This document shows, piece by piece, positions 25,331 through 58,417 of a DNA stretch of 64,000 nt. Position numbers and translations under genes: made by a program. Positions within the stretch are counted from its first letter, which is position 1. Each line of letters begins with the position of its first letter. The notes below the pieces were generated by a model that was not told the DNA's origin, made no database searches, and was given only the letters and a program-made list of their open reading frames with translations. This stretch comes from Eledone cirrhosa (lineage: Eukaryota): contig OZ024742.1 in NCBI GenBank assembly GCA_964016885.1, positions 279,310,001 to 279,374,000 on the forward strand, read 5' to 3'.

Positions 25331-25370
<40 letters not shown>

Positions 25371-25371
<1 letters not shown>

Positions 25372-25505: not shown

Positions 25506-25865
25506 ATATATATATATATATATATATGGAAACAGGGAGAAAAAGACGATTATTAGGAAGAAAAAAAAGATTTTCCCTTTTTAATTCTTTGTCTCTTTTT
25601 TCTGGGTTAGAAAATGATTAAAACGAAATATTTTATTTTGTGTGAAGTGTTAAGGTATTAGTTGATTTATTTATTAATTAACAATGGCATTTATTTATTT
25701 ATTCATATATTTAATAATTTATGTATTTAATATATATATATAATGGAATTTCGTATTTCTGAAGAAATACGGTTTGTTTATAATAAATATTTAGAAAGCC
25801 GTATCTATGCAAGAACACCCGCGGCTATCACCACCTGGTGATGTCCAGCAGAGCCAAGGGAGACC

Positions 25866-26362: not shown

Positions 26363-26519
26363 GTTTGTGTGGGTGGGTCGATGTATATAAATGTATCATT
26401 TTCTCCCTCAGAGAACACTGCATTCAAACTCATCCATAAAATATATCGCCATGGTAACAATTAATATTATTCCGTTTCTTGGCTTATATCTTCCTCAATT
26501 TGTCGAATATGGCACACAC

Positions 26520-26724
26520 TGATGACGATGGTAATGCTGATAGTGGTGCTGATGATAATGGTGATTCTATGGTGATGGAGGTGGCGGTGGCGGTGGCGGT
26601 GGCGGTGCTGATGGTGGTGGCGGCGGTGTTCTTGATGGTGGTGGTGGTGGTGGTGAGGATGACTGTGGTTGTGGTGGTGGTATTGTTGACGATAGTTGCC
26701 GTCGTAGTGATGATGATGATGATA

Positions 26725-26791
<67 letters not shown>

Positions 26792-27025
26792 CGATGTGGT
26801 GGTGGTGGTACTGGTGGTGGTGGTGTTATGGAAGAGGAGTTTTGGAAATCGAACCATAAGGATACTAATGATGATACTGATAATGATGATAATAATTAGG
26901 AGGCTAAGGAGGGGGTGCAGTGAAGGAGGGGGTAGGAGGGAAGTGATACGAGGAAGAGGATGGTGTGAGGAGAATGATGAGGGTACTACAGATGCCGATG
27001 ATAATGTTGATGATGATGATGATAC

Positions 27026-37675: not shown

Positions 37676-38019
37676 GCATGTATGTATGTATATATGTATA
37701 CATATATATATAATAAAAGAATGAAGATCACCACGAATAAGCTATACACTAGGGTCTATTCCAAGCATTAACATATGTTTCATTGGCTAGTATGTGATAA
37801 GATACGACTTAATATCGCCATCGGCCAGGAAATTCGATTGTGATAATTTGCCTGGTTTGAGTAGTATTTAAAATCGAATTTCCCAATAAGATTGCAGATA
37901 GTGATTTTAAGATGCTTCCCATCACCTACTAGCCAAGGAAACCTGTGTTAATGCTTGGAATAAACCACACTGTATGGCTTATCCGTATTAATCTTCATCC
38001 TTTCATTATTAATATTCCA

Positions 38020-38275
38020 GGGCAGTGGTTTGGCAGTATCGGTAGAGCGTCAGACACCATGTTTTGCAGCATAGTTATGGCCCTTTGCGTTCTGAGTTCA
38101 AATCCGCCTAGGTTAACTTTGCCTTTCATCCTTACGAGGTTGATAAAATAAAGTACCAGTGGTGCACTGGGGTAATCGCTGGCCTTGTGCCAAACGTAGA
38201 AGCTTCCGAGGTTAACTTTGCATTTCATTCTTTAATTGCTGGCTTTGTGCCAAAAGTAGAAACAATTATTAATAT
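38020..38275 (+). mobile_element. tRNA-derived SINE with Meta-like core
   Basis: A box TGGCAGTATCGG, B box GAGTTCAAATCC, core GGTTAACTTTGCCTTTCATCC; partially duplicated 3' part. Confidence 0.78.
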
Positions 38276-38580: not shown

Positions 38581-41500
38581 TTCTTTGAGTCTCAGTCATT
38601 GATGTTAGTTAACTGGAAAGTTTTTTGAAATTAATATCAAGCAACTACCTACAGCCTCAGATATCCAGGACGTATCGGAGGGTTCTTGCTGTTCCCAGCA
38701 AGCATGCCTTTTGAAGCGTTCCAAAAAGCGTGGCGGGGCCAATTTTCTTTAACCATCCCTGGAAACTTTTTGAGATAGTATCTAGTACGCCTATGACAAT
38801 CGGGACCACTTTGACTTCATGGCAGTTCCAAATCCTTTTTACCTCCCACTTTAAGTCCTGGTATCGGTTAATTTTCTCCCTCTCCTTCTCTTGCACTCTC
38901 GTGTCGAATGGGCAGGCCACCTCCACAATCAGGCACGATCTTTTTTCCTTGTCCAAAACCACCAGGTCAGATCTATTGTGTTCCAGTTTCTTGTCCGTCT
39001 GTATCCTAAAATCCCACAGCACCTTCACCTGATCGTTTTCTATCACCGACTCTGGCTTATGCTCATACCACTTCTCAGAATGTAGTAAATTGTTTACTTT
39101 GCATAGGTGCCAGTGGATCACCCGGCCCATAACATCATGTTTCCAGGCCTTATAGTGAATCTGTGCTAGGTGTTTACACTCGGATACAATGTGAGCCACA
39201 TTCTCCTCTCTCCACAGATCCTGCACAGTGGGCTATCCTCCTCCTTGTAAATATGGTGTTTCAACCACTTCGATTTGAGGGCCTGCTCTTGCGCAGCCAT
39301 TAGCATTCCTTCTGTAGCCTTTTTAAGGTCTCCTCTTTTCAACCAGTTCCATGTCTGTGGATCTCTGAATTCAGTTTTCTCAAAGAAGGTACTATGAAGT
39401 GATTTTACATGAAGGCTGCTCTTTCTCCTTGTTGTTATTTCCTCCTTGGACATCCCCTGGTCTATTGTCCTCTCCTTCAGGACAATTCTGTGCATTGGCT
39501 CCCTACTATCAGTCACGTATTTGTGTAGGTTGTTTTTCTCCATCTGAACACAGTCCTCTATGCTGATAAGACCTCTTCCACCTTCAGAGCTCCTTAAGTA
39601 GAATCTATTGACATCACTCCTCTTGTGGAACATGCTGTATATAGTCAATAGCTTCCTAGTCTTCCTATTCAGTGTCAACAAGCACATCCAACACCTTCTC
39701 ACTCGTACCGAAGAGCTTAAGATCGTCCATGAAGAGGAGGTGATTGATGGTAAGCTCTCCCTTTCCCAACTTGTATCCTGCTGTCACTTTTCGCAGTATA
39801 ATGGTCAGGGGCATCAGGACAAGGACAAACAACAGAGGGAACAGTCTATCTCCCTGGAAGATACCCCTCTTGATCTTCACGCCTCCGAAGGATTCTCCAG
39901 CTGATGTTAACTCTGTTTTCCAGGACTTCCTACTTTTGCCCAACAACTATCTGATGTTATCTGCCACCTTGAAGATCTCTAGGCTTTTGTTGATCCAAGA
40001 ATAAGCACCATATCAAATGCCTTTTTGTAGTCTATCCATCCCATGGCAAGACCAGTGTGTCTCCTCTTGCAATTCCTCATTACCATATTATCAATAGGTA
40101 ACTGGTCCTTTGTACCACGGGACTTCTTTCGGCATCCTTTCTGTTCGTCCGGTAACAAGTTGTTTGTGTGCAGGTGATGTTAGATTTCCTCAGACATAAT
40201 GCTTGTCAACAGTTTTCACATTACGGACAGACATGTAATAGGTCTATAGTTGGTAACATCATTACCCTTGATTCGGTCTTTCATTACCAGAACTATGGTA
40301 CCTTTTGTCAACCACTCTGGTACCTCACCTGACATCAAGCAGTCATTGAACATGGTTGTTAGTTTCGGGTGGAGGGATGTTATATTTTTCATCCAATACC
40401 CCTGCACACCATCTGGGCCTGGTGATTTCCATTGGTTAGTTTTTTGGCCTGCCCCTTAAGAGTTTCAACTGTGATACTCAAATCAGTTTGTTGGTGTGCC
40501 TGTTCACTAATCTCCTTTTGTACTGACTCAATCCACACTGCCTGGTCATTATGTTTAACATCCTGCTCCCATATTCCTCTCCAGAATGTCTTAGTTTGTT
40601 CCGCCTCAGGGATCAAGTCGTTGCCTCTTTCTTTCCCTTCAAGTTGTCCAAACAGCATCTTCTGATTGTTGTCAAACATGCGGTTCTGTCTATAGTGACT
40701 GACTCTGCTCTCATATCGCCTATTTTTTGCACTCTTTGCTACAATGCGTTGCTTCAGTTCCTCTATGATAATATTTAGCTTTTTCCTCCTTGTTTTGTAC
40801 TTTATTTCCAGTCTATTTTTGGTGTCTATGTTTTTTAGTGTCCCATTCAGTAGGGACTCAAGCTTTCCAATGTAATTTCTCATTTCCCTGATTTGATCAT
40901 TCAGTCGTTTCTCCCACCGAGGTTCTGATCTTTCTTGTTTGTTGTTTCCTCTCGCTTTTATGCCAAGTAATTTCCTCACCGCATATGCTGTTGCTTTGAG
41001 GATATTGTGGCACTGGTGAAGATTCCTCGCCTCAAGGTATGGGATGACTTTGTTTACCTTAGCTGTTGTTTCTTTTAACTTTTTCCTGTCTACAAATCTT
41101 AGCTTCATAGGTTTCCCACTATCATTGTTCAATTCATCTACCACTAAATTTAGGATATAAACCAAATCTTGTCCTAGCCCGTCAGCATTCATCTCCTCAA
41201 TGGCCGTATCTTTGTTCCAGGTATTATTTATTTCAGCATTCAGATCATTATCTGCTTCTGATGGTTCCTCCGTTCTCTCAACCTCTTCACCTTCATTTCC
41301 CACTGGCTCGTTTGCCTGGCATACTCCACTCTCCATTTCCAAGCTAATCTCTCTGCTCAGTTCCTCCAGTTCCCGCTCGCTTATCCACCCATTAGTTCTT
41401 ATTACCCGAGCCTGCCCGGCCAATTTTTGTTCATCTAATTTAAATAGACCAATCTCGTTCCAGATGTTATGCATCCGTTTCCTATAGCCTTTCTCCTTGG

Positions 41501-42642
41501 GGTTACTCTTCGGGTAACATTGCATAACAGTTCTATTCAATTCTTTCGTCCAGTTGGTTCTGGTCCCTTTCCTTCTTCTTCTTCCTCCGACACCAGCAGT
41601 ATTTGGTTGACAGCCAGGTCCCTGCTGCTGAGCCAGGGAGCACGTTCTGGGTGAGAGTCTGTCACTTGACATTCCAGTCACCACTTCGCCGTTATTCGAA
41701 CTGTTTAGGTTCGACATTTAAACACTCTTATCGAGGATTGGTGAACTTATGGTTACATAACCACCGGTGATTTCATCACCCCCGGTGATTTTAGTGCGGA
41801 ACTATCACGCTGTAGACGAACATAAATAAACAAACAAACAAATACGTAAAAAAAAAAAAAAGAATAAGCAGAAATTTCATTGTAATGTAATGTTTGAATG
41901 TCTGACATAGTTTTTTTTTCCTTCTCTGTCTGTCTGTTTGTTTTTCTTTTGATTTTTCTTTTCTTTACGTTTTTCGTTGTTGCTGTGCTGTTCTGAGTTT
42001 GATTTTTTTATTTTTTATTTTTTGACCGGGTCATCAAATCAGTCTATTTATATCTTTTGATGCCTTCCTCTTTTAGTGAGGACACTACGATGCATGTCTT
42101 AGCAGGAGGTAGTGGGAGAGAATAGAGGCGGTAGTGATAATGAGGCAGTGGTGGTGGTGGTGGTGCTGTGCTAGTAGTACTTTGCAGGAGGTTGTGGGCG
42201 AGAATAGCGGCAGTAGCGATAATGAGGCAGTGGTGTTGGTGATGTGATCGTAGTACTGTAGTGATGGTGTTGAAGTTGAAGGAGAAATAGAAATTGAGGT
42301 AACTTGACTAGAGTTTTTGGCGTGATAGTGGTGATGGAGGTGGTGGTGGTGTTGGTGGTGTTGGTGGTGACATTATTTGCCTGCCTGTCCACTTAGCTAT
42401 TTAGCTATTTAGCCATTTTGCCATTTTCCTCTTTTTCGACTATAACATTTCTGATCCAAAAGTAAATATTAAATATTGGGGCCCTATGCCGGAAAGTGAT
42501 GCGTTATGGCTTGCTGCGCATTAAAAATGTAATCTTAGACTTCATTTGTAATTAGAATTATTCTATCACGTTGTTTTAAATAAATAAAAATCAAAAATTT
42601 ACGTGAGCGATTCCACAACGATATATATCCACCATGTGAGTT
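38581..42642 (-). mobile_element. R4-like family 2 copy B, near full length, disrupted
   Basis: ORF pieces 40389-41717, 40216-40407, 39665-39946, 39166-39702 and 38657-39226. ~360-bp deletion at ~39670; divergent ~0.9-kb 5' region. Confidence 0.92.
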
Positions 42643-42864
<222 letters not shown>

Positions 42865-45800
42865 TTCCTTGAATCTCAGTCATTGATATTGGTTAACTGG
42901 AAAGTCCGTTGGATTGAATATCAAGCCACTACCTGCAGCCTCAGATATTCAGGACGTATCGGAGGGTTCTTGCTGTTCCAAGCAAGCATGCCTTTTGAAG
43001 CGTTCCAAAAAGCGTGAAGGGGCCGATTTTCTTTAACCATCCCTGGAAACTTTTGGAGATAGTCCCCAGTGCGCCTATGACAATCGGGATCACTTTGACT
43101 TCATGGCAGTTCCAAATCCTTTTCACCTCCCACTTTAGGTCCTGGTATCGGTTATTTTTCTCCCTCTCCTTCTCTTGCACTCTCGTGTCGAACGGGCAGG
43201 CCACATCCACAATCAGACACGATCTTTTTTCTTTGTCCACAACCACCAGGTCAGGTCTATTGTGTTCCAGTTTCTTGTCCGTCTGTATCCTAAAGTCCCA
43301 CAGCACCTTCACCTGATCGTTCTCCATCACCGCCTCTGGCCTATGCTCATACCATTTCTCAGAATGTGGTAAATTGTTTACTTTGCACGGGTGCCAGTGG
43401 ATCACCCTGCCCATCACATCGTGTCTCCAGCCCTTATAGTGGGTCGGGGCTAGGTGTTTACACTCGGACACAATGTGAGCCACAGTCTCCTCTCTCTCTC
43501 TCCACAGATCCTGCACAGTGGGCTAGCCTCCTCCTTGTAAATATGGTGCTTCAACCACTTCGTTTTGAGGGCCTGCTCCTGCGCAGCCATTAGCATTCCT
43601 TCTGTAGCCTTTTTGAGGTCTCCTCTTCTCAACCAGTTCCATGTCTGTGGATCTCTAAATTCAGTTTTCTCAAAGAAGGTACTATGAAGGGGTTTTCCCT
43701 TAAGGCTGCTCTTCCTCCTTGATGTTATTTCCTCCTTGGACATCCCCTGGCCTACTGTCCCCTCCTTCAGTACAGTTCTGAGCATTGGCTCCTTACTATA
43801 GGTCACGTATTTGTATAGGTTGTTTTTCTCCATCTGAACACAGTCCTCTATGCTGATAAGACCTCTTCCACCCTCAGATCTCCTTAGGTAGAGTCTATCG
43901 ACATCACTCCTCTTGTGGAACATGTTGTAGATAGTCAATAGCTTCCTAGTCTTCCTATCCATTTCTTTTTGTTCAGCAACATTCCATCTCAGAATTCCCG
44001 CACTGTACCTAATAATAGACACAGCTCGGGAATTTACTGCGCTTATGGCATTTCTGCTGTTCAGATGTGACTTCAATACGCTCCTTACTCTCCGAATATA
44101 TTCAGTTCTTAACAATTCCTTCATTTTTTTGTTCTTTATGCCATCAGCCTCCAGAACGCCCAAATACTTGTATCCTTCCTCAGAGTCAATTTCCTTTATC
44201 ATCTCACCTGTTGGTATCTGGATCCCGTTACTTCTGCTCAACCTACCCCTCCTCATCACAATGACTCCACATTTACCAATACCAAACTGCATACATATAT
44301 CACTGCTGAAAATACGGACAGTGTCAACAAACACATCCAACTCCTTCTCACTTTTCCCGAAGAGCTTAAAATCGTCCATGAAGAGGAGGTGATTGATGGT
44401 AAGCTCTCCCCTTCCCAACTTGTATCCTGCTCTCACTTTTTGCAGCATAATGGTCAGGGGTATCAGGGCAAGGACAAACAACAGAGGGGACAGGCTATCT
44501 CCCTGGAAGATACCTCTCTTGATCTTCACGCTTCCCAAGGATACTCCAGTTGATGTCAACTCTGTCTCCCAGGACCCCATACTCCTGCCTAGCAACTGTC
44601 TGATGTTATCTGCCACCCTGAAGATCTCCAGGCTTTTGGTGATCCAAGAATGAGGCACCATGTCAAATGCCTTTCTGTAGTCTATCCATCCCATGGCAAG
44701 ATCAGTGTGTCTCCTCCTGCAATTCCCCATTACCATCTTATCAATAAGCAACTGGTCCTTTGTACCACGTGACTTCTTTCGGCATCCTTTCTGTTCGTCC
44801 GGTAACAAGTTGTTTGTGTGGAGGTGATGGTAGATTTGCTCAGACACAATGCTCGTCAACAGTTTCCACATTACGGACAGACATGTGATAGGTCTATAGT
44901 TGGTAACATCATTACCCTTGATTCGGTCTTTCATTATCAGAACTGTGGTACCTTTTGTCAACCACTCTGGCACCTCACCCGACACCAAGCAGTCATTGAA
45001 CATGGCTGTCAGCTTCGGGTGGAGGGATGTTAAATGTTTAATCCAATACCCCTGCACACCATCTGGGCCTGGTGATTTCCAGTTGGTTAGTTTTTTGGCC
45101 TGCCCCTTAAGAGTTTCAACTGTGATACTCAAATCAGTGTGTTGTTGTGCCTGCTCACCGATCTCACTCTGTACTGTCTCAATCCACCCTGCCTGGACAT
45201 TATGTCTAACATCCTGCTCCCATATTCCTCTCCAGAATGTTTTAGTTTGCTCCGCCCCAGGGATCAAGTCGTTGCCTCTTTCTTTCCCCTCAAGCTGTCC
45301 AAACATCATCTTCTGGTTGTTGTCGAACATGCGGTTCTGTTTATACTGACTGACTCTGTTCTCGTATCGCCTGATTTTTGCACTCTTTGCTACAATGCGT
45401 TGCTTCAGTTCCTCTATGATAATATTTAGCTTTTTCCTCCTAGTTTTGTATTTTATTTCCAGTCTATTTTTAGTGCCTATGTTTTTATGAGTGTCCCATT
45501 CAGTAGTGACTCAAGCTTTCCCATGTCATTTCTCATTTCCCCGATTTGCCCACTCAGTCGCTTCTTCCACCACGGCTCTGCTCTTTCTTGTCTGTTGTTT
45601 TCTCTCGCTTTTATACCAAGTAGTTTCCTCACCGTATTTGCTGTTGCTTTGAGGATGTTGTTGCACTGGTGAAGGCTCCTCGCCTCAAGGTATGGGATGA
45701 CTTTGTTTACCTTAGCTGTTGTTTCTTTTAACTTTTTCCTGTCTACAAATCTTAGGTTCATAGGTCTCCCACTATCATTGTTCAATTCATCTACCACTAA

Positions 45801-47434
45801 ATTTAGGATGTCAACCGAATCTTGTCCTAGCCCGTCAGCATCCATCTCCTCAGTGGCCGTATCTCTGTTCCAGGTATTATTTATCTCAGTATTCAGATCA
45901 TTGTCTGCTTCGGGTGGTTCCTCCGTTCTCAGGACCTCTTCACCTTCATTTCCCACTGGCTCGCTTGTCTGGCATACTACACCCGCCATCTCCAAGCCAT
46001 TCTCTCTGCTCAGTTCCTCCAGTTCCAGCTCGCTTATCCACCCATTAGTTCTTATTACCCGAGCCTGCCCGGCCCATTTTTGTTCATCTAATTTAAATAA
46101 ACCAATCTCGTTCCAGATGTTATGCACCCGTCTCCTGTAGCCCCTCTCCTTGGGGTTACTTTTCAGGTAACATTGCATAACAGTTCTATTCAATTCTTTC
46201 GTCCAGTTGGTTCTGACCCCTTTCCTTCTTCTCCTTCCTCCAACATCAGCAGTATTTGGTTGACAGTCAGGTTCCTGCTGCTGAGCCAGGGGGCACCTGT
46301 TGGGTGAGAGTCTGTCACATGACGTTCTAGTCTCCATTTCACCGTTATTCGAACTGTTTATGTTCGATATTTAAACACTCTTATCGAGGATTGGCGAATG
46401 TATGGTTACATAGCCATCTGTGGATCCGCCATTCCAATTGGCCCTTGTGTGGCATTATCACCTCGCTGTATACGAACACACATAAACAAACAAACACACA
46501 GGCAGAAAGGGCCCCAAAAATGAATAAGCATAAGTTTCATTGTAATGTAGTGTTCGAATGTCTGACTTAGTTTTTGTTTTTTAAGTTTTAGATTTTCCCT
46601 CCTCTTCTCTGTCCGTCCGCCTGCTTCTCTCTTCATTCTTATTTTCTTTACGTTTTTTTTTTTTTGGGGGGGGGGGGGGGGTGTTTTTGTTTTTGTTTTT
46701 GTTTTTCTCTGTTTGTTTTTCTCGTTTTTGCTGTTGTTGCTGTGCTGCTTTGGTTTTGTGGTTTGTTTTTTCTTTTTTCTTTTGAGTCTATCTATATATT
46801 TTGATGCCTTCCTCTTTTTTAGCAGTAGGGATTCTATAGTGTGGTGGTAGCAGCCAGCTGGGAGAAGTGGAAGACTGGCGGCGGTAGCGATACTGAGACA
46901 GTGGTGGTGGTGTTGTCGATACCGAGGCAGTGGTGGCGGTGATGTGACCGTATTACTGGAGTGATGGTGCTGTAGCGGTGGTAGCAGTGAAGGAGTGAAG
47001 GGTTGGTGGCGGCGGAGATGGGATAATGGTGGTAATGATGGCCGTAGTGAGCGGTGGTGGTGAAAATGCCGTTATCTGGCTGTTGTGTTTAGTGTACACA
47101 GGTGATGGGGTGGGTTGTGTATCTAGTTTCTGGTGTTGGTGAGTTTGGCTGTTCTATATAGTGTAGACAGAGGAGAGGAGGGGGGGGGGGTTCTTCTTCC
47201 ATTTATAGCCATTTTCTTTTTTGGATATACAGTGTACAATACAAAGTTGAATATTTGAATATTTGAGCCTTATAACAATATATTTTGGGTCCGAAATTTT
47301 TGGGGCTCAAGCCGGGTGCTTTACGTAGCATTTGTACTAAGAGTTGTTATTTCACAAATGATTTAAATATGTTAAAAATTCAAAACTTACGGGAGCGATT
47401 TCATGACCTCCGCCACCTCGTGCGTCTTCTTCCC
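42865..47434 (-). mobile_element. R4-like family 2 copy C, full length, two frameshifts
   Basis: Nearly identical to copy D, with 2-nt insertions at ~45488 and in the (CT)n at ~43495. Confidence 0.95.
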
Positions 47435-47467
47435 TTATTATTATTATTATTATTATTATTATTGTTA

Positions 47468-50400
47468 TTCCTTGAATCTCAGTCATTGATGTTGGTTAAC
47501 TGGAAAGTCCGGTGGATTGAATATCAAGCCACTACCTGCAGCCTCAGATATTCAGGACGTATCGGAGGGTTCTTGCTGTTCCAAGCAAGCATGCCTTTTG
47601 AAGCGTTCCAAAAAGCGTGAAGGGGCCGATTTTCTTTAACCATCCCTGGAAACTTTTGGAGATAGTCCCCAGTGCGCCTATGACAATCGGGATCACTTTG
47701 ACTTCATGGCAGTTCCAAATCCTTTTCACCTCCCACTTTAGGTCCTGGTATCGGTTAATTTTCTCCCTCTCCTTCTCTTGCACTCTCGTGTCGAACGGGC
47801 AGGCCACATCCACAATCAGGCACGATCTTTTTTCTTTGTCCACAACCACCAGGTCAGGTCTATTGTGTTCCAGCTTTTTGTCCGTCTGTATCCTAAAATC
47901 CCACAGCACCTTCACCTGATCGTTCTCCATCACCGCCTCTGGCCTATGCTCATACCATTTCTCAGAATGTGGTAGATTGTTTACTTTGCACAGGTGCCAG
48001 TGGATCACCCTGCCCATCACATCGTGTCTCCAGCCCTTATAGTGGGTCTGGGCTAGGTGTTTACACTCGGACACAATGTGAGCCACAGTCTCCTCTCTCT
48101 CTCCACAGATCCTGCACAGTGGGCTGGCCTCCTCCTTGTAGATATGGTGCTTCAACCACTTCGTTTTGAGGGCCTGCTCCTGCGCAGCCATTAGCATTCC
48201 TTCTGTAGCCTTTTTGAGGTCTCCTCTTCTCAACCAGTTCCATGTCTGTGGATCTCTAAATTCAGTTTTCTCAAAGAAGGTACTATGAAGGGGTTTTCCC
48301 TTAAGGCTGCTCTTCCTCCTTGATGTTATTTCCTCCCTGGACATCCCCTGGCCTACTGTCCCCTCCTTCAGTACAGCTCTGAGCATTGGCTCCTTACTAT
48401 AGGTCACGTATTTGTATAGGTTGTTTTTCTCCATCTGAACACAGTCCTCTATGCTGATAAGACCTCTTCCACCCTCAGATCTCCTTAGGTAGAGTCTATC
48501 GACATCACTCCTCTTGTGGAACATGTTGTAGATAGTCAATAGCTTCCTAGTCTTCTTATCCATTTCTTTCTGTTCAGCAACATTCCATCTCAGAATTCCC
48601 GCACTGTACCTAATAATAGACACAGCTCGGGAATTTACTGCGCTTATGGCATTTCTGCTGTTCAGATGTGACTTCAATACGCTCCTTACTCTCCGAATGT
48701 ATTCAGTTCTTAACAATTCCCTCATTTTTTTGTTCTTTATGCCATCAGCCTCCAGAACGCCCAAATACTTGTATCCTTCCTCAGAGTCAATTTCCTTTAT
48801 CATCTCACCTGTTGGTATCTGGATCCCGTTACTTCTGCTCAACCTACCCCTCTTCATCACAATGACTCCACATTTACCAATACCAAACTTCATACATATA
48901 TCACTGCTGAAAATACGGACAGTGTCAACAAGCACATCCAACTCCTTCTCACTTTTCCCGAAGAGCTTAAGATCGTCCATGAAGAGGAGGTGATTGATGG
49001 TAAGCTCTCCCCTTCCCAACTTGTATCCTGCTCTCACTTTTCGCAGCATAATGGTCAAGGGCATCAGGGCAAGGACAAACAACAGAGGGGACAGGCTATC
49101 TCCCTGGAAGATACCTCTCTTGATCTTCACGCTTCCCAAGGATACTCCAGTTGATGTCAACTCTGTCTCCCAGGACCCCATACTCCTGCCTAGCAACTGT
49201 CTGATGTTATCCGCCACCCTGAAGATCTCCAGGCTTTTGGTGATCCAGGAATGAGGCACCATGTCAAATGCCTTTCTGTAGTCTATCCATCCCATGGCAA
49301 GATCAGTGTGTCTCCTCCTGCAATTCCCCATTACCATCTTATCAATAAGCAACTGGTCCTTTGTACCACGTGACTTCTTTCGGCATCCTTTCTGTTCGTC
49401 CGGTAACAAGTTGTTTGTGTGTATGTGATGGTAGATTTCCTCAGACACAATGCTCGTCAACAGTTTCCACATTACGGGCAGACATGTGATAGGTCTATAG
49501 TTGGTAGCATCATTACCCTTGATTCGATCTTTCATTATCAGAACTGTGGTACCTTTTGTCAACCACTCTGGCACCTCACCCGACACCAAGCAGTCATTGA
49601 ACATGGCCGTCAACTTCGGGTGGAGGGATGTTAGATGTTTAATCCAATACCCCTGCACACCATCTGGGCCTGGCGATTTCCAGTTGGTTAGTTTTTTGGC
49701 TTGTCCCTTAAGAGTTTCAACTGTGATACTCAAATCAGTCTGTTGCTGTGCCTGCTCACCGATCTCCCTCTGTACTGTCTCAATCCACCCTGCCTGGGCA
49801 TTGTGTCTAACATCCTGCTCCCATATTCCTCTCCAGAATGTTTTAGTTTGCTCCGCCCCAGGGATCAAGTCGTTGCCTCTTTCTTTCCCCTCAAGCTGTC
49901 CAAACAGCATCTTCTGGTTGTTGTCGAACATGCGGTTCTGTTTATACTGACTGACTCTGTTCTCGTATCGCCTGATTTTTGCACTCTTTGCTACAATGCG
50001 TTGCTTCAATTCCTCTATGATAATATTTAGCTTTTTACTCCTAGTTTTGTATTTTATTTCCAGTCTATTTTTAGTGCCTATGTTTTTTAGTGTCCCATTC
50101 AGTAGTGACTCAAGCTTTCCTATGTCATTTCTCATTTCCCCGATTTGCCCACTCAGTCGCTTCTTCCACCACGGCTCTGCTCTTTCTTGTCTGTTGTTTC
50201 CTCTCGCTTTTATACCAAGAAGTTTCCTCACCGTATTTGCTGTTGCTCTGAGGATATTGTTGCACTGGTGAAGGCTCCTCGCCTCAAGGTATGGGATGAC
50301 TTTGTTTACCTTAGCTGTTGTTTCTTTTAACTTTTTCCTGTCTACAAATCTTAGGTTCATAGGTCTCCCAATATCATTGTTCAATTCATCTACCACTAAA

Positions 50401-52005
50401 TTTAGGATGTCAACCGAATCTTGTCCTAGCCCGTCAGCATTCATCTCCTCAGTGGCCGTATCTCTGTTCCAGGTATTATTTATCTCAGTACTCAGATCAT
50501 TGTCTGCTTCGGGTGGTTCCTCCGTTCTCAGGACCTCCTCACCTTCATTTCCCACCGGCTCGCTTGTCTGGCATACTACACCCGCCATCTCCAAGCCATT
50601 CTCTCTGCTCAGTTCCTCCAGTTCCAGCTCGCTTATCCACCCATTAGTTCTTATTACCCGAGCCTGCCCGGCCAATTTTTGTTCATCTAATTTAAATAAA
50701 CCAATCTCGTTCCAGATGTTATGCATCCGTCTCCTGTAGCCCCTCTCCTTGGGGTTACTTTTCAGGTAGCATTGCATAACAGTTATATTCAATTCTTTCG
50801 TCCAGTTGGTTCTGGCCCCTTTCCTTCTTCTCCTTCCTCCAACATCAGCAGTATTTGGTTGACAGTCAGGTTCCTGCTGCTGAGCCAGGGGGCACCTGTT
50901 GGGTGAGAGTCTGTCACATGACGTTCTAGTCTCCATTTCACCGTTATTCGAACTGTTTATGTTCGATATTTAAACACTCTTATCGAGGATTGGCGAATGT
51001 ATGTTTACATAGCCATCTGTGGGTCCGCCATCCCACTTGGCCCTTGTGTGGCATTATCACCATGCTGTATACGAACACACATAAACAAACAAACACACAG
51101 GCAGAAAGGGCCCCAGAAATGAATAAGCATAAGTTTCATTGTAATGTAGTGTTCGAATGTCTGACTTAGTTTTAGTTTTTTAAGTTTTACTTTTTCCCCC
51201 CTCTTCTCTGTCCGTCCGCCTGCTTCTCTCTTCATTCTTATTTTCTTTACGTTTTTGGGGTCTCTTTTTTTTTTTGTTTTTCTTTTTCTCTGTTTGTTTT
51301 TCTCGTTTTTTGCTGTTGTTGCTGTGCTGCTTTGGTTTTGTTGTTTGTTTTTTCTTTTTTCTTTTGGGTCTATCTATATATTTTGATGCCTTCCTCTTTG
51401 TTAGTAGTAGGAATTCTATAATGTGGAAGTAGAAGCCAGCAGGGAAGTGGGAGACTGGCGGCGTTAGCGATACTGAGACAGTGGTGGTGGTGATGTCGAT
51501 ACCGAGGCAGTGGTGGCGGTGATGTGACCGTATTACTGTAGTGATGGTGCTGTAGCGGAGTCAAGGGGTGGTGGCGGCGTTGCTGGGATAGTGGTGGTAA
51601 TGATGGCCGTAGTGAGCGGTGGCGGTGAAGGTGAAAATGTGTCGTTATCTGACTGTTGTGTTTAGTATACACAGATGATGGGGTGGGTGGTGTATCTAGT
51701 TTCTGGTGTTGGTGAGTTTAGCTGTCCTATATAGTGTAGCCAGAGGAGAGGAGGGGAGGGGTTCTTCTTCCATTTATAGCCTTTTTTTTTTTTGGATATA
51801 CAGTGTACAATACAAAGTTGAATATTTGAATATTTGAGCCTTATAACAATATATTTTGGGTCCGAATTTTTGGGGGCTCTAGCCGGGTGCTTTACGTAGC
51901 ATTTGTGCTAAGAGTTGTTATTTCACAAATGGTTTAAATATGTTAAAAATTCAAAACTTACGGGAGCGATTTCATGACCTCCGTCACCTCGTGCGTCTTC
52001 TTCCC
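47468..52005 (-). mobile_element. R4-like family 2 copy D, full length, intact
   Basis: ~1.07-kb 5' region, intact ORF, 76-nt 3' UTR, TAA arrays on both sides. Same 5' terminus as copy C. Confidence 0.95.
47544..50936 (-). CDS. Intact 1130-aa RT / RLE polyprotein
   Basis: RTNWTKELN N-terminal motif; KSPGPDG, NYRPITCL, IDYRKAFD, GIFQGDSLSP, FMDDLK; CRICGEREETVAHIVSEC; RHD; NRPDLVV..VDVACP..EKINRY. Confidence 0.95.
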   Translation of the reverse strand: METRTSCDRLSPNRCPLAQQQEPDCQPNTADVGGRRRRKGARTNWTKELNITVMQCYLKSNPKERGYRRRMHNIWNEIGLFKLDEQKLAGQARVIRTNGWISELELEELSRENGLEMAGVVCQTSEPVGNEGEEVLRTEEPPEADNDLSTEINNTWNRDTATEEMNADGLGQDSVDILNLVVDELNNDIGRPMNLRFVDRKKLKETTAKVNKVIPYLEARSLHQCNNILRATANTVRKLLGIKARGNNRQERAEPWWKKRLSGQIGEMRNDIGKLESLLNGTLKNIGTKNRLEIKYKTRSKKLNIIIEELKQRIVAKSAKIRRYENRVSQYKQNRMFDNNQKMLFGQLEGKERGNDLIPGAEQTKTFWRGIWEQDVRHNAQAGWIETVQREIGEQAQQQTDLSITVETLKGQAKKLTNWKSPGPDGVQGYWIKHLTSLHPKLTAMFNDCLVSGEVPEWLTKGTTVLIMKDRIKGNDATNYRPITCLPVMWKLLTSIVSEEIYHHIHTNNLLPDEQKGCRKKSRGTKDQLLIDKMVMGNCRRRHTDLAMGWIDYRKAFDMVPHSWITKSLEIFRVADNIRQLLGRSMGSWETELTSTGVSLGSVKIKRGIFQGDSLSPLLFVLALMPLTIMLRKVRAGYKLGRGELTINHLLFMDDLKLFGKSEKELDVLVDTVRIFSSDICMKFGIGKCGVIVMKRGRLSRSNGIQIPTGEMIKEIDSEEGYKYLGVLEADGIKNKKMRELLRTEYIRRVRSVLKSHLNSRNAISAVNSRAVSIIRYSAGILRWNVAEQKEMDKKTRKLLTIYNMFHKRSDVDRLYLRRSEGGRGLISIEDCVQMEKNNLYKYVTYSKEPMLRAVLKEGTVGQGMSREEITSRRKSSLKGKPLHSTFFEKTEFRDPQTWNWLRRGDLKKATEGMLMAAQEQALKTKWLKHHIYKEEASPLCRICGEREETVAHIVSECKHLAQTHYKGWRHDVMGRVIHWHLCKVNNLPHSEKWYEHRPEAVMENDQVKVLWDFRIQTDKKLEHNRPDLVVVDKEKRSCLIVDVACPFDTRVQEKEREKINRYQDLKWEVKRIWNCHEVKVIPIVIGALGTISKSFQGWLKKIGPFTLFGTLQKACLLGTARTLRYVLNI

Positions 52006-52091
<86 letters not shown>
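52006..52091. repeat. (TTA)n array at the polarity switch point
   Basis: Direct read. Confidence 0.95.
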
Positions 52092-52283
52092 TTTACTGGG
52101 CTTTCTCCACAAATGTCCCTCCGAAGTCTCCCCCCTATTGGGGAATTTTTCATTGTTATTTTTTGTTACATCCTCTGTTTTTGTTTTTTACACGCAGAAG
52201 TGCCCATTTGTACCGTCCTGCATTGTCCTGCACTGTCCTTAATGTCTACTTTATGTAAACCCTTGTGGTTAATAAAGAAATCA
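52092..52283 (+). mobile_element. Tx1-like 3' UTR-only insertion
   Basis: Matches ~57998-58185; AATAAA then a TTA tail. Confidence 0.9.
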
Positions 52284-52537
52284 TTATTATTATTATTATC
52301 ATTATTATTATTATTATTATTATTATTGGCGACCTACGTAGTAAATCGTATCATCGTGAGCTCCGCAAATGTTTGTTATTTCCGTTTGTTAAAAATTGCC
52401 AGTTATGGAAAAATTTGATTGTTAACCATATATAAGCGCACATACATTGTTTTCCGAAAAGGACACCCAAAAAGATTGGGGCCTTGTGCCCAAAATTTAA
52501 ACTTTTATTATTATCAAAAAAATTTCTTTGAAAAAAA

Positions 52538-54488
52538 ATGGCTAATTCACCTCTGCACCAAGCAGCTGAAAGCCTTCCTCACAAATTAACACCTCACACC
52601 GACACCACCATCGTTGCCAACACTACAAAAAATATAAGCACTAGCAATATTTTAAATTTGTCTCAGGCAGACATTCATTTCCCGCCATTACCAATGACTG
52701 CAAGTGTTAAAGCCTCCACCACCACCGCGACAACAGAAACAAAAGAAGAAAAAAATTAATTAACTCGTGATGTCGAAATGAAATCAAGCAAAATGGACTC
52801 TTCCTCACCAAAGACGACTGACGTCACCACCACCACAACTGAAACTAAAATTAATATTAACACAAATAACGATAGCAACAACAACAACAATGACATTATA
52901 AACCCCCCCCCCCTCATTTTCGCCAGAGTAGCAAAACAGTTCGAAGCATTTACGGTAACTGAAGAGGATTTAGAAAATGCCAAATTAAATGGTAAAGAAA
53001 GATGGGTACAGGGTCAGCCTCACCCCCCCCCCCAACTAATAAAAGGGAGCATCGGCGCCTATGCACCGTGTCGTATCGAACAATAAATGTAAAATCGCGC
53101 CGAGTGGAACGGGCATCCGAGTCCCAAATTCTAAAAGCTTTGGGACATGTGTGGGCAAGAAAAACCCACATCAGACGTGGGCAAAAGTATGGAACCGTGG
53201 ACGTGTTCTTTGAAACACCAGAGGAGGCTAGAGAACACTCCATGGCCCCATTAAGAAGTGACGACTTCACACTCGTCCCAAGCTATTGTGGCCAGAGACT
53301 CGTAAAGATCAGGGTGACACACGTTCCACCGGCCATCGAAATTCCCTGGCTAATAGCGGCCGTCCTCGCCGGCATCGAAGCCAACACGAAAATAATAGCA
53401 ATAGCAAAAGAAAAGCAGGAGAACTGGTCCGGATCTGGGATGGAGCTCCTGATCCAAGCGGACCAAAAAGCATTGGGGAGATCCCAGAGGTAATAGACCT
53501 CACAGACGGCAGCCATCTCACGGTAATTGTCGAGGGCAGAAGACCTAGGTGTGTCGTTTGTGGTGAAGTAACCCACCTAAGGGCTTTCTGCCCTCAGGCT
53601 AAAAGGTTGAGGCCACCTCTCCTACCCAACCAAGTGACACAACCATCAACACCACCAGTAGCAGAGATGGCAGCAACAACTGTAGCAGCAACAACAGAAG
53701 CAACTATAACAGCAACAACCCCAGCAACAGTAGCAAAACCAACACCACCACCACCACCAGCAAAACCACAACCACCACCACCCAACACTTCAGAACTAGC
53801 ACCAGCGCCAACACCATCCACCACGCCACAACCAAAACTAACGCCTGTTGAGGATTTTCCACTCCCCGGCCTATCACAACTGGAGACAGATTGTGACGAC
53901 GAGGAGTGGGAAACGATATCCGGAAAAAAAAAAGAAACCAAAAAAGAAAAAAATTCTCTTCCTTCCCCCTCCAAAAACAAAATACAGAGGGAAACAAATA
54001 AATTAAGAAACAAAAAAGTTAGGACAGATATGCCACCATCCACACCAGCATCACCAACCCCATCAACCCAAACACCAACACCATCATCACCAACCCCAAC
54101 ACCACCATCACCCACACCACAAAAGTCACCAAAATGCGAAAAAGAAACAAAACCACAACAAACGCAAACAAAACAAAACAAGCAAAACGATACACACTAC
54201 ACAGCATTAAATTTGAACAAAAAGCAATTATTACACTACATCCAACACAACACCAGCATCACAGAAAAAGACTACACAACAACCCCAAAATTCACACCAC
54301 CTCCACACATACAAATCACTCGCATCACACAGAAAGCGTACATGACACTAAAACAAAAATTCCCCAAAGACATCGGAGACTTCCGACAAGCACTCTCCAG
54401 GAGGATTTATAAGGACATCCTTCCTGAGGAGGCCACAAGCAGTGAAAAGGATGGAAAAACCGTCCTTCCCCTACGAGAAGTAAGGTAA
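52538..54488 (+). pseudogene. Tx1-like ORF1 (RRM-like region, CCHC knuckle, P/T-rich linker), frameshifted
   Basis: Four pieces joined at homopolymer runs; YGTVDVFF, VEGRRPRCVVCGEVTHLRAFCP. Confidence 0.8.
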
Positions 54489-54522: not shown

Positions 54523-57500
54523 ATGACCTCACTCAGAATAGGCAGCATAAATGCGCGTGGCTTGGGGTCGTCATGGAAGCAGGGCCACCTGCTCAACGAC
54601 CTCAGGTCACTAAACATAGATGTAGTGGCCATCAGCGAGACCAGAATCTCTGAAGCACAGGCTTTCGCACCGATCTTCGGCGGCTACGATGTGTACGCAT
54701 CTCCCAGCCGTCCGGGATCGGGGGGAGGAGTTGCTGTGCTTTTTCGGAGAGGTTTGGATCTTGCCATACGGGCCATCTTCCTGGACCCAGAAGGTAAGTT
54801 GGTGGTGCTGGACGTGACCAGCGGAGACGGGCAAGCTTTCAGGTTAGTGGCCGTCTATGCCCCGACAGGAGCAGGGCGGCCTGATTTCTTCCGGCGTCTG
54901 GAGACCTTTCTTGGAACGTCTCGCTCTTTAGTGTTAGTGGGCGACTGAAACGGGATCTTAGATGCACGCTGGGATTGTGTGGGATTAGTGGATAGGGAAG
55001 GAGGGTGCATGAGTCTCACCAACCTGCTCAGACGTTTTGAACTGTCTGACAGGTACCGAATGGATTTCCGAAATGTACCAATGTGGACTTGGACAAATCG
55101 CTTAGGGTCATCCAGATCATATCTAGATAGAGTATTTTGTAGGGAAATAGATAGTTCTAGCATAGGCTGTCCACAATTCAAGATAGTCAGCTACACGGAC
55201 CACAAATTCGTGATCTGTGTGCTTGACTTAGATAGGCTTCATAGACAAGGACCCGGATACTGGAAGCTAAACGCGTCCTTACCAGCGCGCAAGGCCTATA
55301 GAGACCGGATTAGCGAACTAGTTAAGCGGGCGTTGACGGAGGCCATCGTCAACAACAAGTGGTGGTTTGCTCTGAAAAGAGCAATTAGAATAGAGTCCAT
55401 TAGGTTTAGTAAGACTTTAGCAATAGAGAAAAATAGAGCAGAAGGAGAATTAGTTAGAAAATTAGATGAGGCGCTTAGCAAAGGCATCGCGACCGACGTA
55501 CTTGCGGCGAAATTGGCCCTTGACCAATTCTTCAATGCAAAGCACGAAGGCTGCGTTGTCAGAGCTAGGGTGCGTGCTCTCAGACACGAGGGGGCGAAAG
55601 CCGTTCAATGGGCCCGAATGGCGGAGGCGCGTGGTGGCAACAAAGCCACGGTCCGGTCTTTGGTGGACCACGAGGGGCGCATGCTACTCGATCCCGGGCA
55701 AATGTGTGAAGCTTTTCAGCGACACTTCGCTCAACTGTTCCGGGGCAGTGGCGGGACGAATCGAGGGATGGACTTTAGTGTCTACCTCGACGGACTGCCG
55801 CGGCTTTCGGCCACTGAGGCGGAGTGTTGCGAAAAGCCGATAACAACCGCTGAAGTACGGGATGCAATGACTAGTTGCACAAGGGGTAAATCGCCTGGTT
55901 TGAATGGTCTGCCCTATGAACTTTACGTACAAATGCCAAACTTGTTCGGAGGCCTCTTGGCGGACGTCTACTACAACTGGCAACAGAACGGGAGAATTCC
56001 CAGCTCTGTGAGCCGAGGAGCGGTGGCGCTGCTGAGAAAGGATACGAACAAGGGGGATAACATAGATAATTTTAGCCCCATAACTCTGCTAAACACAGAG
56101 TTCAAGATTTTGGCCAAGGTGCTAGCAAAGAGGTTGGCGCTTGTCGTTGGTGGTCTGGTGGGAGAGGCACAGACATGCGCCATTCCCGACAGATCCATCC
56201 ACGACAACCTCCACCTCATGCGATACATCGTAGAGAGGGTAGCTAGGAACCTGTCACGGGTGGGTCTTTGATCAATTTAGATCAGTCGAAAGCATTCGAT
56301 AGGGTCGACCATCGTTACCTAGAGGCAGTCCTGAGGGCGGCTGGCTTTGGGCCCGTCTTCAGAGGCTGGATCGCTGCCATGCACAGCAACATCTGCTCTG
56401 TAGTGAGAGTGAACGGTCACCTTTCGGAACCGTTCAACATCATGCGCTCGGTCCGCCAAGGATGTCCCCTCTCGTCCCTATTGTACGTATTGTCTCTCGA
56501 GCCATTACTGCACAAACTGGAGACGTTGAGGTGGATCCCGCGCGAACTAGGATGCTGAATATCCATGTCAGCATATGCCGACGATGTCACCGTAGTGGTG
56601 TCGAACGCCAAACACATCGAGGCGATCGGCACTACACTAAGAGAATACGAAGCGGTGACAGGAGCAATGATCAACCAGGAAAAGTCAGTGGGCCTGCAAC
56701 TCGGCACCTGGAGAGGCAAGTCCATACCGTCCAGCAGCGTCGTCGGGCGCTGGACAGACGGACCGGATAAGTTACTAGGGGTCTGGTTCTGTCCAGACCT
56801 CGAGACGGACAAAAACTGGGACGAGGTGACGAGCAGGGTGGCTTCTCTCACCCAGAAATGGGCCGAGAGGAAGCTATCCCTGAAAGGTCGAACGGAGGTG
56901 GCGAATGCGTACATCGCATCCGTCATCTACTACCGCCTGACCGTCGTACCTTGTCCTAAGCCCCGCCTGACTGCGCTGGAGCGTTTGCTCTTTCGCTTCT
57001 TGTGGAAGGGACGCGCTCCGATGGTCAGGCGGTCCAACTGCTGTCAACACCCGCTACGTGGAGGGCTGGGCATGCCGTGGCTGATGATGCGCAGACACGC
57101 GCTCAGGCTACGACATCTCCACCTCTTCCTCGGCGGTGATCAGGTGTGGTCGCCGTTTGCTAGACACGTTTTCCCCAGCTCGTCTCCTTGACGGAGCTGC
57201 AGTCCTGGGTCAAGCGAAGACCGAGAGGGAGCGCTTGGAGACTGGAATGTCTTCAGGCGCTCACAGCCCTCGACCAATCGGGCAATGTGATCGGTGGAAA
57301 CTCCACCTTGGCGTTCTATAGGGGATTAGTGGAGGGGAAGAGCGACGACGTACTTGGAGAAACTCTCGGCGTCGACGAAAATCAACTAGCCAATCTCTTC
57401 GGAAGGACTTTCGGGCCGGGGCCTATGGACAACTTCCAGAAATCCCTGGCCTGGCAATGCTACCGAGGAGCTTTGCCAGTTCGGGATAAACTCTACAGGC

Positions 57501-57940
57501 ATGGAGGTGCCGTCAGCCGGGCATGTCCGAGATGCGCGCAGGGCGACGAAACCGTCCTGCACGCACTCGTCCAGTGTCCGAGCATTGCTGACTTGTGGGT
57601 TTATGTCGAACACCTGCTGTCACGTGTAGGACGGATCCAGCTATCAGCTGAGTCCATCGTGAGGATTGCCCCGCCCCCTTCCTTTAGCCGGGAAGGGTAG
57701 GCAGTTTTTATCTGTCTGGTGGCCATGGCGAAAGAGATAGTATGGTGGACACGTTTGAAAGGGCTGAAGACGAGTACTTACCTCTTCGGTGATGCCCTGA
57801 TTAACTTTTTCAAATTTCATTTGAAAAGGAAAATCAGGGTAGAGAGGGAAGTGCTCTCTTCCCAGCATTTTGTTGAAAGATGGGTGAGAGAAGCAAGTAT
57901 GGCCCGAATGAATGGGCCTTCTCTGAGTATGTGTCTGTAA
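54523..57940 (+). pseudogene. Tx1-like ORF2 (APE + RT + C-terminal zinc finger), with stops and frameshifts
   Basis: SINARGL, SET, VYAP, VGD(W)N, LDR, TDH, GYWKLN, KSPG, LDQSKAFDRVDH, VRQGCPLS, AYADD, CPRC..ETVLHALVQC. Confidence 0.92.
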
Positions 57941-58417
57941 ATTAAAGGTGGAAAACTGGGAGAGGGCACTTGCCCTGGTGGTCAGGGCCACTGTGGTCTT
58001 TTAATGGGCTTTCTCCACAAATGTCCCTCGGAAGTCTTCCCCCTATTGGGGAATTTTTCTTTGTTATTTTATTTCAACCTCTGTTTTTTCTACACGCAGA
58101 AATGCCCATTTGTACCGTCCTGTATTGTCCTGTACTGTCCTTAATGTCTACTTTATGTAAACCCTTGTGGTTAATAAAGAAAACATTATTATTATTATTA
58201 TTATTGGCGACCTACGTAGTAAATCGTATCATCGTGAGCTCCGCAAAGTTTGTTATTTTCAGTTGTTTAAAATTGCCATTCATGGAAATTTTTTATTGTT
58301 AACTGTATATAAGTGCACATACATTGTTATCTGAAAATGACACCCCAAAAGATTGGGGCCTTGAGCCCAAAATTTAAACTTTTATAATTATGAAACAAAA
58401 TTTTTCTTTGAAAAATC

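Follow-up and report, generated by a model that had tools for sequence, protein, structure and literature searches.

The window analyzed here, a stretch of 64,000 nucleotides from Eledone cirrhosa (contig OZ024742.1), carries two kinds of non-LTR retrotransposon, which are listed with the neighboring features in Table 1. The elements and coordinates of the original prediction proved correct: R4-like family-2 copies start at 52005, 47434, and 42642 on the minus strand, and Tx1/L1-type copies start at 52328 and 58206 on the plus strand; we name each copy by its start. All three family-2 copies bear a leader of 0.92–1.06 kb. R4 family 1 was said to have no leader, which was seen in a single copy (1569) that could be 5'-truncated. 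The two kinds of element use the same microsatellite on opposite strands, R4 ending in (AAT)n and Tx1 in (ATT)n.

Table 1 Features of the R4-like and Tx1/L1-type elements and their surroundings (positions within the window)
Feature	Coordinates	Strand	Remarks
R4-like copy 42642, whole leader (family 2)	41718–42642	-	925 nt; TAA right before ATG at 41717
R4-like copy 42642, head (~220 nt)	42420–42642	-	colinear with Tx1-type 5' UTR
R4-like copy 42642, extreme 5' block	42614–42642	-	compared with both Tx1 heads; one 1-nt gap
R4-like copy 42642, second block	42460–42490	-	at +153; matched to Tx1 block at +153
R4-like copy 42642, body	38581–41717	-	frameshifts and ~350-nt internal deletion
R4-like copy 47434, leader	46371–47434	-	1064 nt; ATA where ATG expected
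R4-like copy 47434, body	42867–46370	-	frameshifted
R4-like copy 52005, leader	50970–52005	-	1036 nt; ATA where ATG expected
R4-like copy 52005, ORF	47544–50969	-	1141 codons uninterrupted; RT and C-terminal zinc finger/RLE-type
Candidate retained intron, copy 52005	51065–51961	-	GTAAGT ... AG-free T-rich tract, TACAG; predicted only
Candidate intron equivalent, copy 47434	46466–47390	-	predicted only
Candidate intron equivalent, copy 42642	41810–42602	-	predicted only
Spacer between head-to-head R4 and Tx1 copies	52006–52327		(TTA)n, 190-nt Tx1 3' stub (52092–52282), (ATT)n
Tx1/L1-type copy 1, 5' UTR	52328–52537	+	ATG at 52538
SINE-tail-like 31-mer in Tx1 UTR	52480–52510	+	second instance 58357–58387
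Tx1-type ORF1 (copy 52328)	52538–54488	+	frameshifted
Tx1-type ORF2 and 3' UTR	54524–58184	+	APE and RT, broken; 3' UTR ends in (ATT)n
Tx1/L1-type copy 2, 5' UTR	58206–58417	+	
tRNA-type SINE copy	20112–20345	-	tail matches Tx1 UTR block
Further tRNA-type SINE copy	13290–13489	-	
Further tRNA-type SINE copy	13218–13288	-	
Further tRNA-type SINE copy	38018–38273	+	

The architecture of copy 52005 is that of the R4/Dong group, with a single ORF containing RT, a C-terminal CCHC finger, and a PD..D-type endonuclease, and no APE. RVT_1 and a weak zf-RVT were matched, the best solved relatives were R2 proteins (residues 415–1102, E 2e-30), and the ORF contains what we take, reading the sequence, to be the RLE motifs. 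Dong/R4 elements target (TAA)n; likewise, read in sense, every family-2 3' end continues into (AAT)n, a TAA-type tail and insertion, so that architecture and microsatellite flanks are the same as in that group. The Tx1-type copies have the L1/Tx1 organization: an ORF2 with an N-terminal APE (Exo_endo_phos, E 2e-8) and RT, whose best PDB match is L1 ORF2p and whose relatives have PF03372 and PF00078, and a separate ORF1 with a CCHC knuckle, present in both copies. ORF1 (148 relatives; zf-CCHC passed by two of nine scanned) runs from a disordered N terminus through a conserved core with the knuckle and a P/T- and K-rich linker to a conserved C-terminal block. The Tx1 label, as opposed to the L1 clade, is that of the original prediction and is compatible with (ATT)n targeting; Kibi/Koshi-type Tx1 elements, which target microsatellites (PMC4494074), share this architecture and these flanks. 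An NCBIfam search matched none of five proteins, and both clade names denote architecture and microsatellite flanks rather than a place in an RT tree.

The head of copy 42642 resembles both Tx1 heads. It ranked first of 4222 non-Tx1 225-nt windows against each of them in global and local alignment, and none of 3000 dinucleotide shuffles scored as high (z 6.0 and 5.6). Within the extreme 5' block, chosen after viewing the alignment, 28 aligned bases are identical at 17 positions and differ by transitions at 11, with 0 transversions; the first 60 nt hold 39 matches, 13 transitions, and 2 transversions, a transition fraction reached by 0 of 150 local shuffles. In this block, copy 42642 is nearer to Tx1 (17/11/0) than to its R4 sibling 47434 (14/5/6). 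With 5/-4 scoring and 30-nt local shuffles, all four 250-nt tests returned the minimum p (1 of 301). The Tx1 head has a 27-nt purine/pyrimidine pattern that recurs without mismatch at one non-Tx1 site in the window, 42641, which is R4 +2. A sliding control of 68 queries yielded 10 zero-mismatch matches, 2 in register at copy 42642 and 8 scattered, and we roughly estimate the chance of such in-register landing at p<=0.002. A second block is 20/31 identical to its Tx1 counterpart in the register +153/+152/+153. Against 500 shuffles, the head block was equaled by 4 and 5 and the pre-ATG block by none, twice, whereas the middle block was not significant (44 and 137 as high). Reverse-complement, reversed, and 3' UTR controls for the head match were all null.

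The similarity amounts to ~65% identity in sequence of 68% A+T. With bias correction, nhmmer carried the Tx1 profile to copy 42642 weakly (E=3 over 230 nt, E=0.011 over 450 nt) and the R4 profile to Tx1 at a weak E=0.74; a blastn self-comparison did not report the head match, and strict 2/-3 scoring over 250 nt gave z 0.85 and 1.59. Only in copy 42642 does the colinear resemblance between base 1 and the ATG exceed matched nulls.

The original prediction had quoted copies 47434 and 52005, not 42642, and for these two the alignment with shuffled controls is far less distinct. They gave z 2.7–3.1 (7–25 of 3000 shuffles as high) and ranks 4–66 of 4222, and 0 of 16 tests with 5/-4 scoring passed p<0.05 against 30-nt local shuffles; an unrelated control, copy 42642 against the family-1 5' end, came close at z 2.46. 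Direct head significance is thus confined to one of three R4 copies. Copies 47434 and 52005 are clearly homologous to the leader of 42642 (profile E<=3e-59), which supports their inclusion in the putative shared ancestry by this route and not through a significant direct match. The individual motifs fared unevenly. A GAC-to-GCTC spacing of 30 nt (52005, 47434) against 29 nt in both Tx1 copies stands, although this GAC is missing from copy 42642, and the quoted Tx1 5' string is a composite of two copies. The pair CCCAAAAA..CCCAAAAT occurs in two of three R4 copies (spacing 14–15) and one of two Tx1 copies (spacing 23) and is absent from the rest. AAAATGGCTA lies at +224 in 42642 and +220 in 47434, but copy 52005 has AAAAAGGCTA, without ATG; one Tx1 copy has it at +208 (ATG at +211) and the other lacks it. 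The CAC/ACC-rich and A-rich tracts are present in the R4 leaders but are compositional. What persists of the proposed capture of a Tx1-type 5' UTR is therefore support, via 42642 and not the quoted copies, for shared ancestry of the first ~210–220 nt.

The original prediction went further and took the captured piece to include ORF1, with the P/T- and K-rich tracts as its decayed remains, for example of the disordered N terminus of a related Tx1 ORF1. We consider this distinctly unlikely. The ATG context at the end of the shared block is retained in two of three copies, the low-complexity stretch behind it (~600 nt) is similar in length to the disordered N terminus of ORF1, and two segments of copy 42642 (+376–525 and +231–620) matched the linker of Tx1 52328 above all 100 triplet shuffles (z 4.6 and 3.8). 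Against Tx1 58206, however, the same segments gave z 2.3 and -0.6 and mapped elsewhere, so this low-complexity match is unreplicated. Profiles of three ORF1 blocks, built on 46 relatives for the conserved core, 6 for the C-terminal block, and 13 for the N-terminal block, recovered the Tx1 frames (E 1e-7 to 1e-33) but matched 0 of the 18 frames of the leaders, the best E being 1.0, 1.2, and 0.33, respectively; no trace of the N-terminal, core/zinc-knuckle, or C-terminal block was seen in the R4 leaders. Past the ATG, no colinear signal appeared: 22 of 24 ATG-anchored DNA tests had at least 12 of 300 shuffles as high (best two, 2 and 3). Protein frame pairs above z 2.5 numbered 3 of 54, all poly-Pro/Lys; the CAC/ACC density is equaled at 26401–26900; and indels between leaders are out of frame. 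The ~600 nt past the ATG are fast-evolving and of low complexity, and ORF1 homology is undetectable there. A profile of whole ORF1 relatives (139 sequences) gave a weak signal lacking any frame preference in the + frames of the three leaders (E 6e-5 to 0.05 in eight of nine), which we attribute to composition. By blastp, none of 120 R4 relatives had an N-terminal extension matching the leaders.

A tRNA-type SINE of the window has a tail that the 31-mer of the Tx1 UTR resembles (E 7e-4 and 0.038, the next best being 2.3). Identity to this tail falls from Tx1 (22–26/31) to R4 42642 (17–18/31) to R4 47434 and 52005 (12/31). This decay from SINE to Tx1 to R4, together with the fact that the ATT-type tail lies in Tx1 sense and not in R4 sense, suggests transfer from Tx1-type to R4, a polarity argument based on 31 nt. 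Three other origins were rejected. A whole head derived from a decayed SINE gave a null result, the SINE head and body reaching z -0.05, -0.10, and -0.97 once the tail was removed; the Tx1 5' UTR as an old Tx1 3' UTR was null; and for a leader made of Tx1 5' UTR plus 3' UTR, the last 260 nt exceeded z 0.7 in 0 of 15 comparisons with five 3' UTRs (local shuffles).

The first ~210–220 bases of the R4-like leader and the Tx1-type 5' UTR likely descend from one ancestral module. We somewhat favor an old cross-clade capture, in which an R4 ancestor would have taken a ~210-nt putative internal promoter from an older Tx1-type family. A promoter is suggested because the 5' position of the module is fixed. 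The start register is common to R4 and Tx1. In copy 52005 the R4 ORF behind this type of leader is intact. Transfer could have involved non-homologous recombination or a jump of the reverse transcriptase between templates, or else R4 may have inserted, in sense, within an AAY-rich tract of a Tx1 ORF1; we propose these routes because plain read-through between neighbors would give the wrong strand.

Against common descent, the AT-rich heads might have short core-promoter motifs of the host in common, or the 42642 match might be a compositional accident. The weak profile E-values, the two copies near the unrelated-control level, and the null middle block fit this reading, and a motif under purine/pyrimidine constraint could likewise produce a pattern of transitions alone. 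We nevertheless regard convergence or chance as unlikely, as it has to contend with the exact register of two blocks separated by 150 nt, a head block found nowhere else in the window, and the top rank and shuffle results of copy 42642. The length so covered, across five copies, appears to favor descent over convergence. Common ancestry with another donor, either a third source (another LINE, a SINE-containing locus, or a host promoter) or transfer from R4 to Tx1, is in our judgment quite improbable. The Tx1 UTR does look composite owing to its SINE-tail-like 31-mer, R4 elements with long 5' UTRs have been described (R4-1_ADi, 652 nt, PMC5786205), and L1-type elements often swap 5' UTRs (PMC3600994). 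Yet with the tail removed neither head aligns to the SINE head and body, the R4 heads taken whole have no SINE match, and the tail block is better preserved in Tx1 than in R4.

Cross-clade 5' modules have precedents. R4-1_ADi, a coral R4 element (Kojima 2018, PMC5786205), carries an RTE/Ceph-like segment within its 5' UTR and is likewise a member of the R4 clade whose long 5' UTR shares sequence with a distant APE-type LINE clade; there, however, the shared piece is 45 nt and internal (135–179), whereas here it is the extreme 5' ~210 nt and the partner is L1/Tx1-type, in the same microsatellite. The LP domain common to Nimb-17_LMi, I-3_DR, RTE-9_CPB, and mollusc LP-SINEs (Matetovici et al. 2016, PMC4758252) is similarly an extreme 5' module across LINE clades, a presumed promoter for which template switching was proposed, but it is ~70 bp, well conserved, and confined to APE-type clades, whereas the present module has ~210 nt at ~65% identity and links an RLE with an APE element. 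Judged by eye, the LP head differs in sequence from the heads here. In the R2/R1 hybrid SIDEs of Drosophila (Eickbush and Eickbush 2012, PMC3414825), for which non-homologous recombination or a template jump was proposed, one clade's 5' end also sits on another that shares its target locus, across RLE/APE. Those are non-autonomous, with an RLE head (ribozyme) on an APE tail in one orientation; here the RLE ORF is intact, the proposed transfer runs the other way, and the two elements occupy opposite strands. Mammalian L1 5' UTR replacement (PMC3600994), the 77-nt ingi/L1Tc head, and crocodilian Tx1 with snRNA heads (PMC4758252, PMC4494074) illustrate that LINEs gain new 5' ends repeatedly, the sources being the same clade or small RNAs rather than an exchange of L1/Tx1 with R4.

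The sharing of 5' ends across clades has already been published. For the R4–Tx1 pair, no report was found in a search of mostly open literature, outside Repbase and Dfam, which is weak evidence of novelty. To our knowledge, the mechanism by which microsatellite-dwelling RLE elements are transcribed is less clear. RLE elements in transcribed targets (rDNA) can use host read-through and a ribozyme (PMC5786205). If the capture is true, a promoter borrowed from a co-targeting L1/Tx1 element would be one answer for microsatellites, 5'-module exchange would reach an autonomous element across the deepest non-LTR split, and repeat annotation could assign such heads to the wrong family.

An HDV-like 5' ribozyme is reported for some R4 elements (PMC5786205). 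An Rfam search of 38000–64000 found no ribozyme at E<=5, no Rfam families or tRNA genes were found, and a crude HDV-like descriptor yielded nothing in copy 42642 and no candidate common to all three copies. A conserved 5' hairpin was discarded (folding z about 0, consensus energy -0.9), as was a named 9-pair helix, which did not exceed shuffles (91/500 for covariation).

The conserved last ~230 nt of the leader likely serve translation start or splicing. Most of the leader may be an intron, with a ~44-nt first exon joined to an acceptor ~95–115 nt before the ORF and unspliced RNA as the transposition template; we hold this reading, which is compatible with the others, to be tentative and rather unlikely. 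The donor scores are modest (4.3–6.8 bits by a generic matrix; ~9% of GT sites score >=5), higher-scoring donors lie close by, the segment is retained in all three genomic copies, and Tx1 shows GCAAA at the donor position. Nevertheless, all three copies have GTAAGT/GTAAAT at +45/+45/+41 and an AG-free T-rich tract of 92–96 nt ending in TACAG, AG gaps of at least 88 making up 60 of 7043 in unmasked DNA. A combined scheme, in which R4 runs on the Tx1 promoter, the ORF1 N terminus has become an intron spliced for translation and kept in the transposed RNA, and the module passed in relay from SINE to Tx1 to R4, seems very improbable. In favor of the intron by itself, the distal leader is the best conserved part (79–86% vs 61–76% elsewhere), and predicted splicing would lower the number of upstream ATGs from 12–15 to 4–6.

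The window consists of AT-rich eukaryotic DNA with abundant (AT)n, (AG)n, and (AAT)n repeats, and a retrotransposon cluster spans 38581-64000. Here an R4 array and a Tx1 array, whose copies are named by their 5' ends, stand head to head, 322 nt apart. Copy 52005 of the R4 family retains an uninterrupted open frame of 1141 codons with a reverse transcriptase (RT), the best relatives of which with a solved structure are R2 proteins; the plus-strand family carries an APE, an RT, and a separate ORF1 with a knuckle, and L1 ORF2p is its best solved relative. The finer labels R4/Dong and Tx1 are putative and fit the architecture and targets of these elements. Dong-R4 and L1-Tx1 are both reported among the recently active elements of octopus-like genomes (PMC13282606, PMC8967140), with which the repeat mix of the window would be compatible. 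The sense-strand 3' ends are (AAT)n in the R4 family and (ATT)n in the Tx1 family, so that the two target opposite strands within one microsatellite. All results are drawn from three R4 and two Tx1 copies in one window.

Retrotransposon families and SINE copies in the window
Feature	Position	Strand
RLE-type family (R4), three tandem copies	5' ends 42642, 47434, 52005	-
APE-type family (Tx1), two tandem copies	5' ends 52328, 58206	+
tRNA-type SINE	20112-20345	-
tRNA-type SINE	13290-13489	-
tRNA-type SINE	13218-13288	-
tRNA-type SINE	38018-38273	+

A second R4-like family (1569-5366, plus strand) has an uninterrupted frame of 1218 codons with 36% identity to the array family; its single copy, possibly truncated, has only about 12 nt ahead of the first ATG. 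Another R4-like copy survives as decayed pieces at 333-1391 (plus strand), with about 67-70% identity to the array family, and a 5'-truncated Tx1 3' stub of 190 nt (52092-52282, plus strand) lies between the R4 and Tx1 heads.

The original prediction held that the leader preceding the R4 ORF is a captured Tx1-type 5' UTR followed by a decayed ORF1. The observation was confirmed in part, and its interpretation gained support in part. Its motif claims were roughly right but uneven among copies, and the head alignment clearly exceeded shuffled controls for copy 42642, less so for the two copies it had quoted. Globally as well as locally, bases 1-225 of copy 42642 aligned better with both Tx1 heads than any other of the 4222 windows tiled across the two strands. 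Dinucleotide shuffling never gave as high a score in 3000 trials (z = 6.0 and 5.6), and the match also held against 30-nt local shuffles. Copies 47434 and 52005 reached z = 2.7-3.1, near the level of an unrelated control (42642 against the 5' end of the second R4-like family, z = 2.46), and did not pass the 30-nt local-shuffle test with 5/-4 scoring. Since the three leaders are plainly homologous, these two copies join the case through copy 42642.

Under a scoring scheme that treats all mismatches alike, copy 42642 and Tx1 show 39 matches, 13 transitions, and 2 transversions over their initial 60 nt; none of 150 local shuffles attained this transition fraction. Within its first 28 columns, the alignment has 17 identities, 11 transitions, and no transversions, and when the Tx1 head is reduced to purines and pyrimidines, with one gap, its sole perfect non-Tx1 match in the window is at base +2 of copy 42642. 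Because this block was selected after the alignment had been viewed, 68 queries were slid along the UTR as a control, giving 10 perfect matches, two in register (42642/42639) and eight scattered; from this rate we estimate the in-register match at roughly p ≤ 0.002. A second block, ahead of the ATG, starts at +153 in R4 and at +153 and +152 in Tx1 and is significant alone (0/500 twice); the stretch between the blocks is non-significant (44/500 and 137/500). Bias-corrected profile searches were weak for the head (E = 0.011 to 3), blastn missed the similarity, and strict scoring over 250 nt was null. Overall, the shared head of about 210 nt is probably real, descent is more likely than chance to explain it, and we consider common ancestry of the two heads quite likely.

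The pre-ATG block shared by R4 and Tx1 also resembles the 3' tail of a tRNA-type SINE (20159-20087), the top outside match of the Tx1 head profile (E = 4e-4). Motifs like the A and B boxes can be read by eye in the SINE copies. When four SINE tails are combined into a profile, its best matches after the SINE copies are the two Tx1 UTR blocks (E = 7e-4 and 0.038; next 2.3); the remainder of the head shows no SINE likeness. In ungapped comparison with three SINE tails, the identical positions out of 31 number 24-26 and 22-24 for the Tx1 UTR blocks, 20-21 for the Tx1 3' end, 17-18 for R4 copy 42642, and 12 for copies 47434 and 52005. This fall from Tx1 to R4, thin at 31 nt, suggests that Tx1 is nearer to the source, and the likeness of the tail to the Tx1 UTR block and, less so, to the Tx1 3' end means that a Tx1-type family may be the partner of the SINE.

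The predicted decayed ORF1 was not recovered. In all, 148 relatives of the ORF1 core were collected, and profiles were built for an N-terminal block (13 sequences), the core with knuckle (46), and a C-terminal block (6); each recovers the Tx1 frames, and none matches any of the 18 leader frames (best E = 0.33, 1.0, and 1.2, respectively). A profile of 139 whole relatives gave weak scores in the plus frames of all leaders with no frame preference, reflecting composition. ATG-anchored DNA comparison gave no consistent signal over 24 tests (best 2/300 and 3/300, others at least 12/300). In favor of an ORF1 remnant, positions +231-620 of copy 42642 exceed triplet shuffles against the P/T-K linker of Tx1 copy 52328 (0/100), but 70 of 100 shuffles score as high against copy 58206, and equal CAC/ACC density occurs at 26401-26900, outside the R4 and Tx1 elements. 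Indels between leaders break the frame, and sequence change in the leaders outpaces that in the ORF (61-76% identity over the first 600 nt versus about 90%). Although unproven and, in our judgment, unlikely, a decayed ORF1 keeps some probability, as a disordered ORF1 N terminus could erode past recognition.

Beyond the established features, namely the shared head, the fixed start register, and opposite-strand targeting, the best explanation, to which we give slightly better than even chances, is that an R4 ancestor acquired its head from an older Tx1-type family. Neighbor read-through would yield the wrong strand, so other routes are likely. The head could have passed by a template jump of the RLE reverse transcriptase, as shown for R2 in vivo (PMC3414825) and in vitro (PMC8857657), by non-homologous recombination, or by in-sense insertion into an AAY-rich tract like those of Tx1 ORF1 (52865 and 58735). 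The two families do become joined: at 5399-8196, a Tx1-type 3' part (minus strand) and a 5'-truncated R4 body of the array family (plus strand) meet head to head with 7-8 nt of microhomology at 5871-5878, the junction expected if a deletion had removed the sequence between two such neighbors as 52005 and 52328.

Cross-clade 5' modules are already published. Examples are a head of about 70 bp that mollusc LP-SINEs have in common with Nimb and RTE families (PMC4758252), an RTE-like piece within the 652-nt UTR of coral R4-1_ADi (PMC5786205), and R2/R1 hybrids (PMC3414825); in addition, mouse L1 has replaced its UTR repeatedly (PMC3600994), and there are Tx1 elements with snRNA heads (PMC4494074). 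No R4-Tx1 shared head was found in the literature searched, with Repbase, Dfam, and most subscription papers outside its scope.

The distal 230 nt or so of the leader are better conserved and contain an AG-free T-rich tract of 92-96 nt ending in TACAG. Together with GTAAGT/GTAAAT at +41/+45, whose donor scores are modest, this tract indicates that a leader segment could be a predicted retained intron. Searches turned up neither a ribozyme nor a conserved hairpin. The leaders end in TAA immediately ahead of the ORF start (50969, 46370, and 41717), which is ATG in copy 42642; the two younger copies have ATA instead, and in the intact one of these the first in-frame ATG lies 11 codons further on. 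Two R4 copies begin with GGGAAGAAG (51997-52005 and 47426-47434), similar to a (GAA)n run that flanks the third (42643-42755) and follows the tail of another copy (8210-8238); this start may be captured target sequence.

Elsewhere, frames at 16402-16800 (minus strand) and 24525-25580, broken by (AT)n runs, resemble by eye, respectively, the end of a GIY-YIG (Penelope-type) sequence and a fragment of an RTE-type RT. Two inverted repeats, 30045-30161/31433-31549 (117 nt, 100% identity) and 36710-37099/37257-37615 (242 + 123 nt, 94% identity), are possibly DNA-transposon ends.
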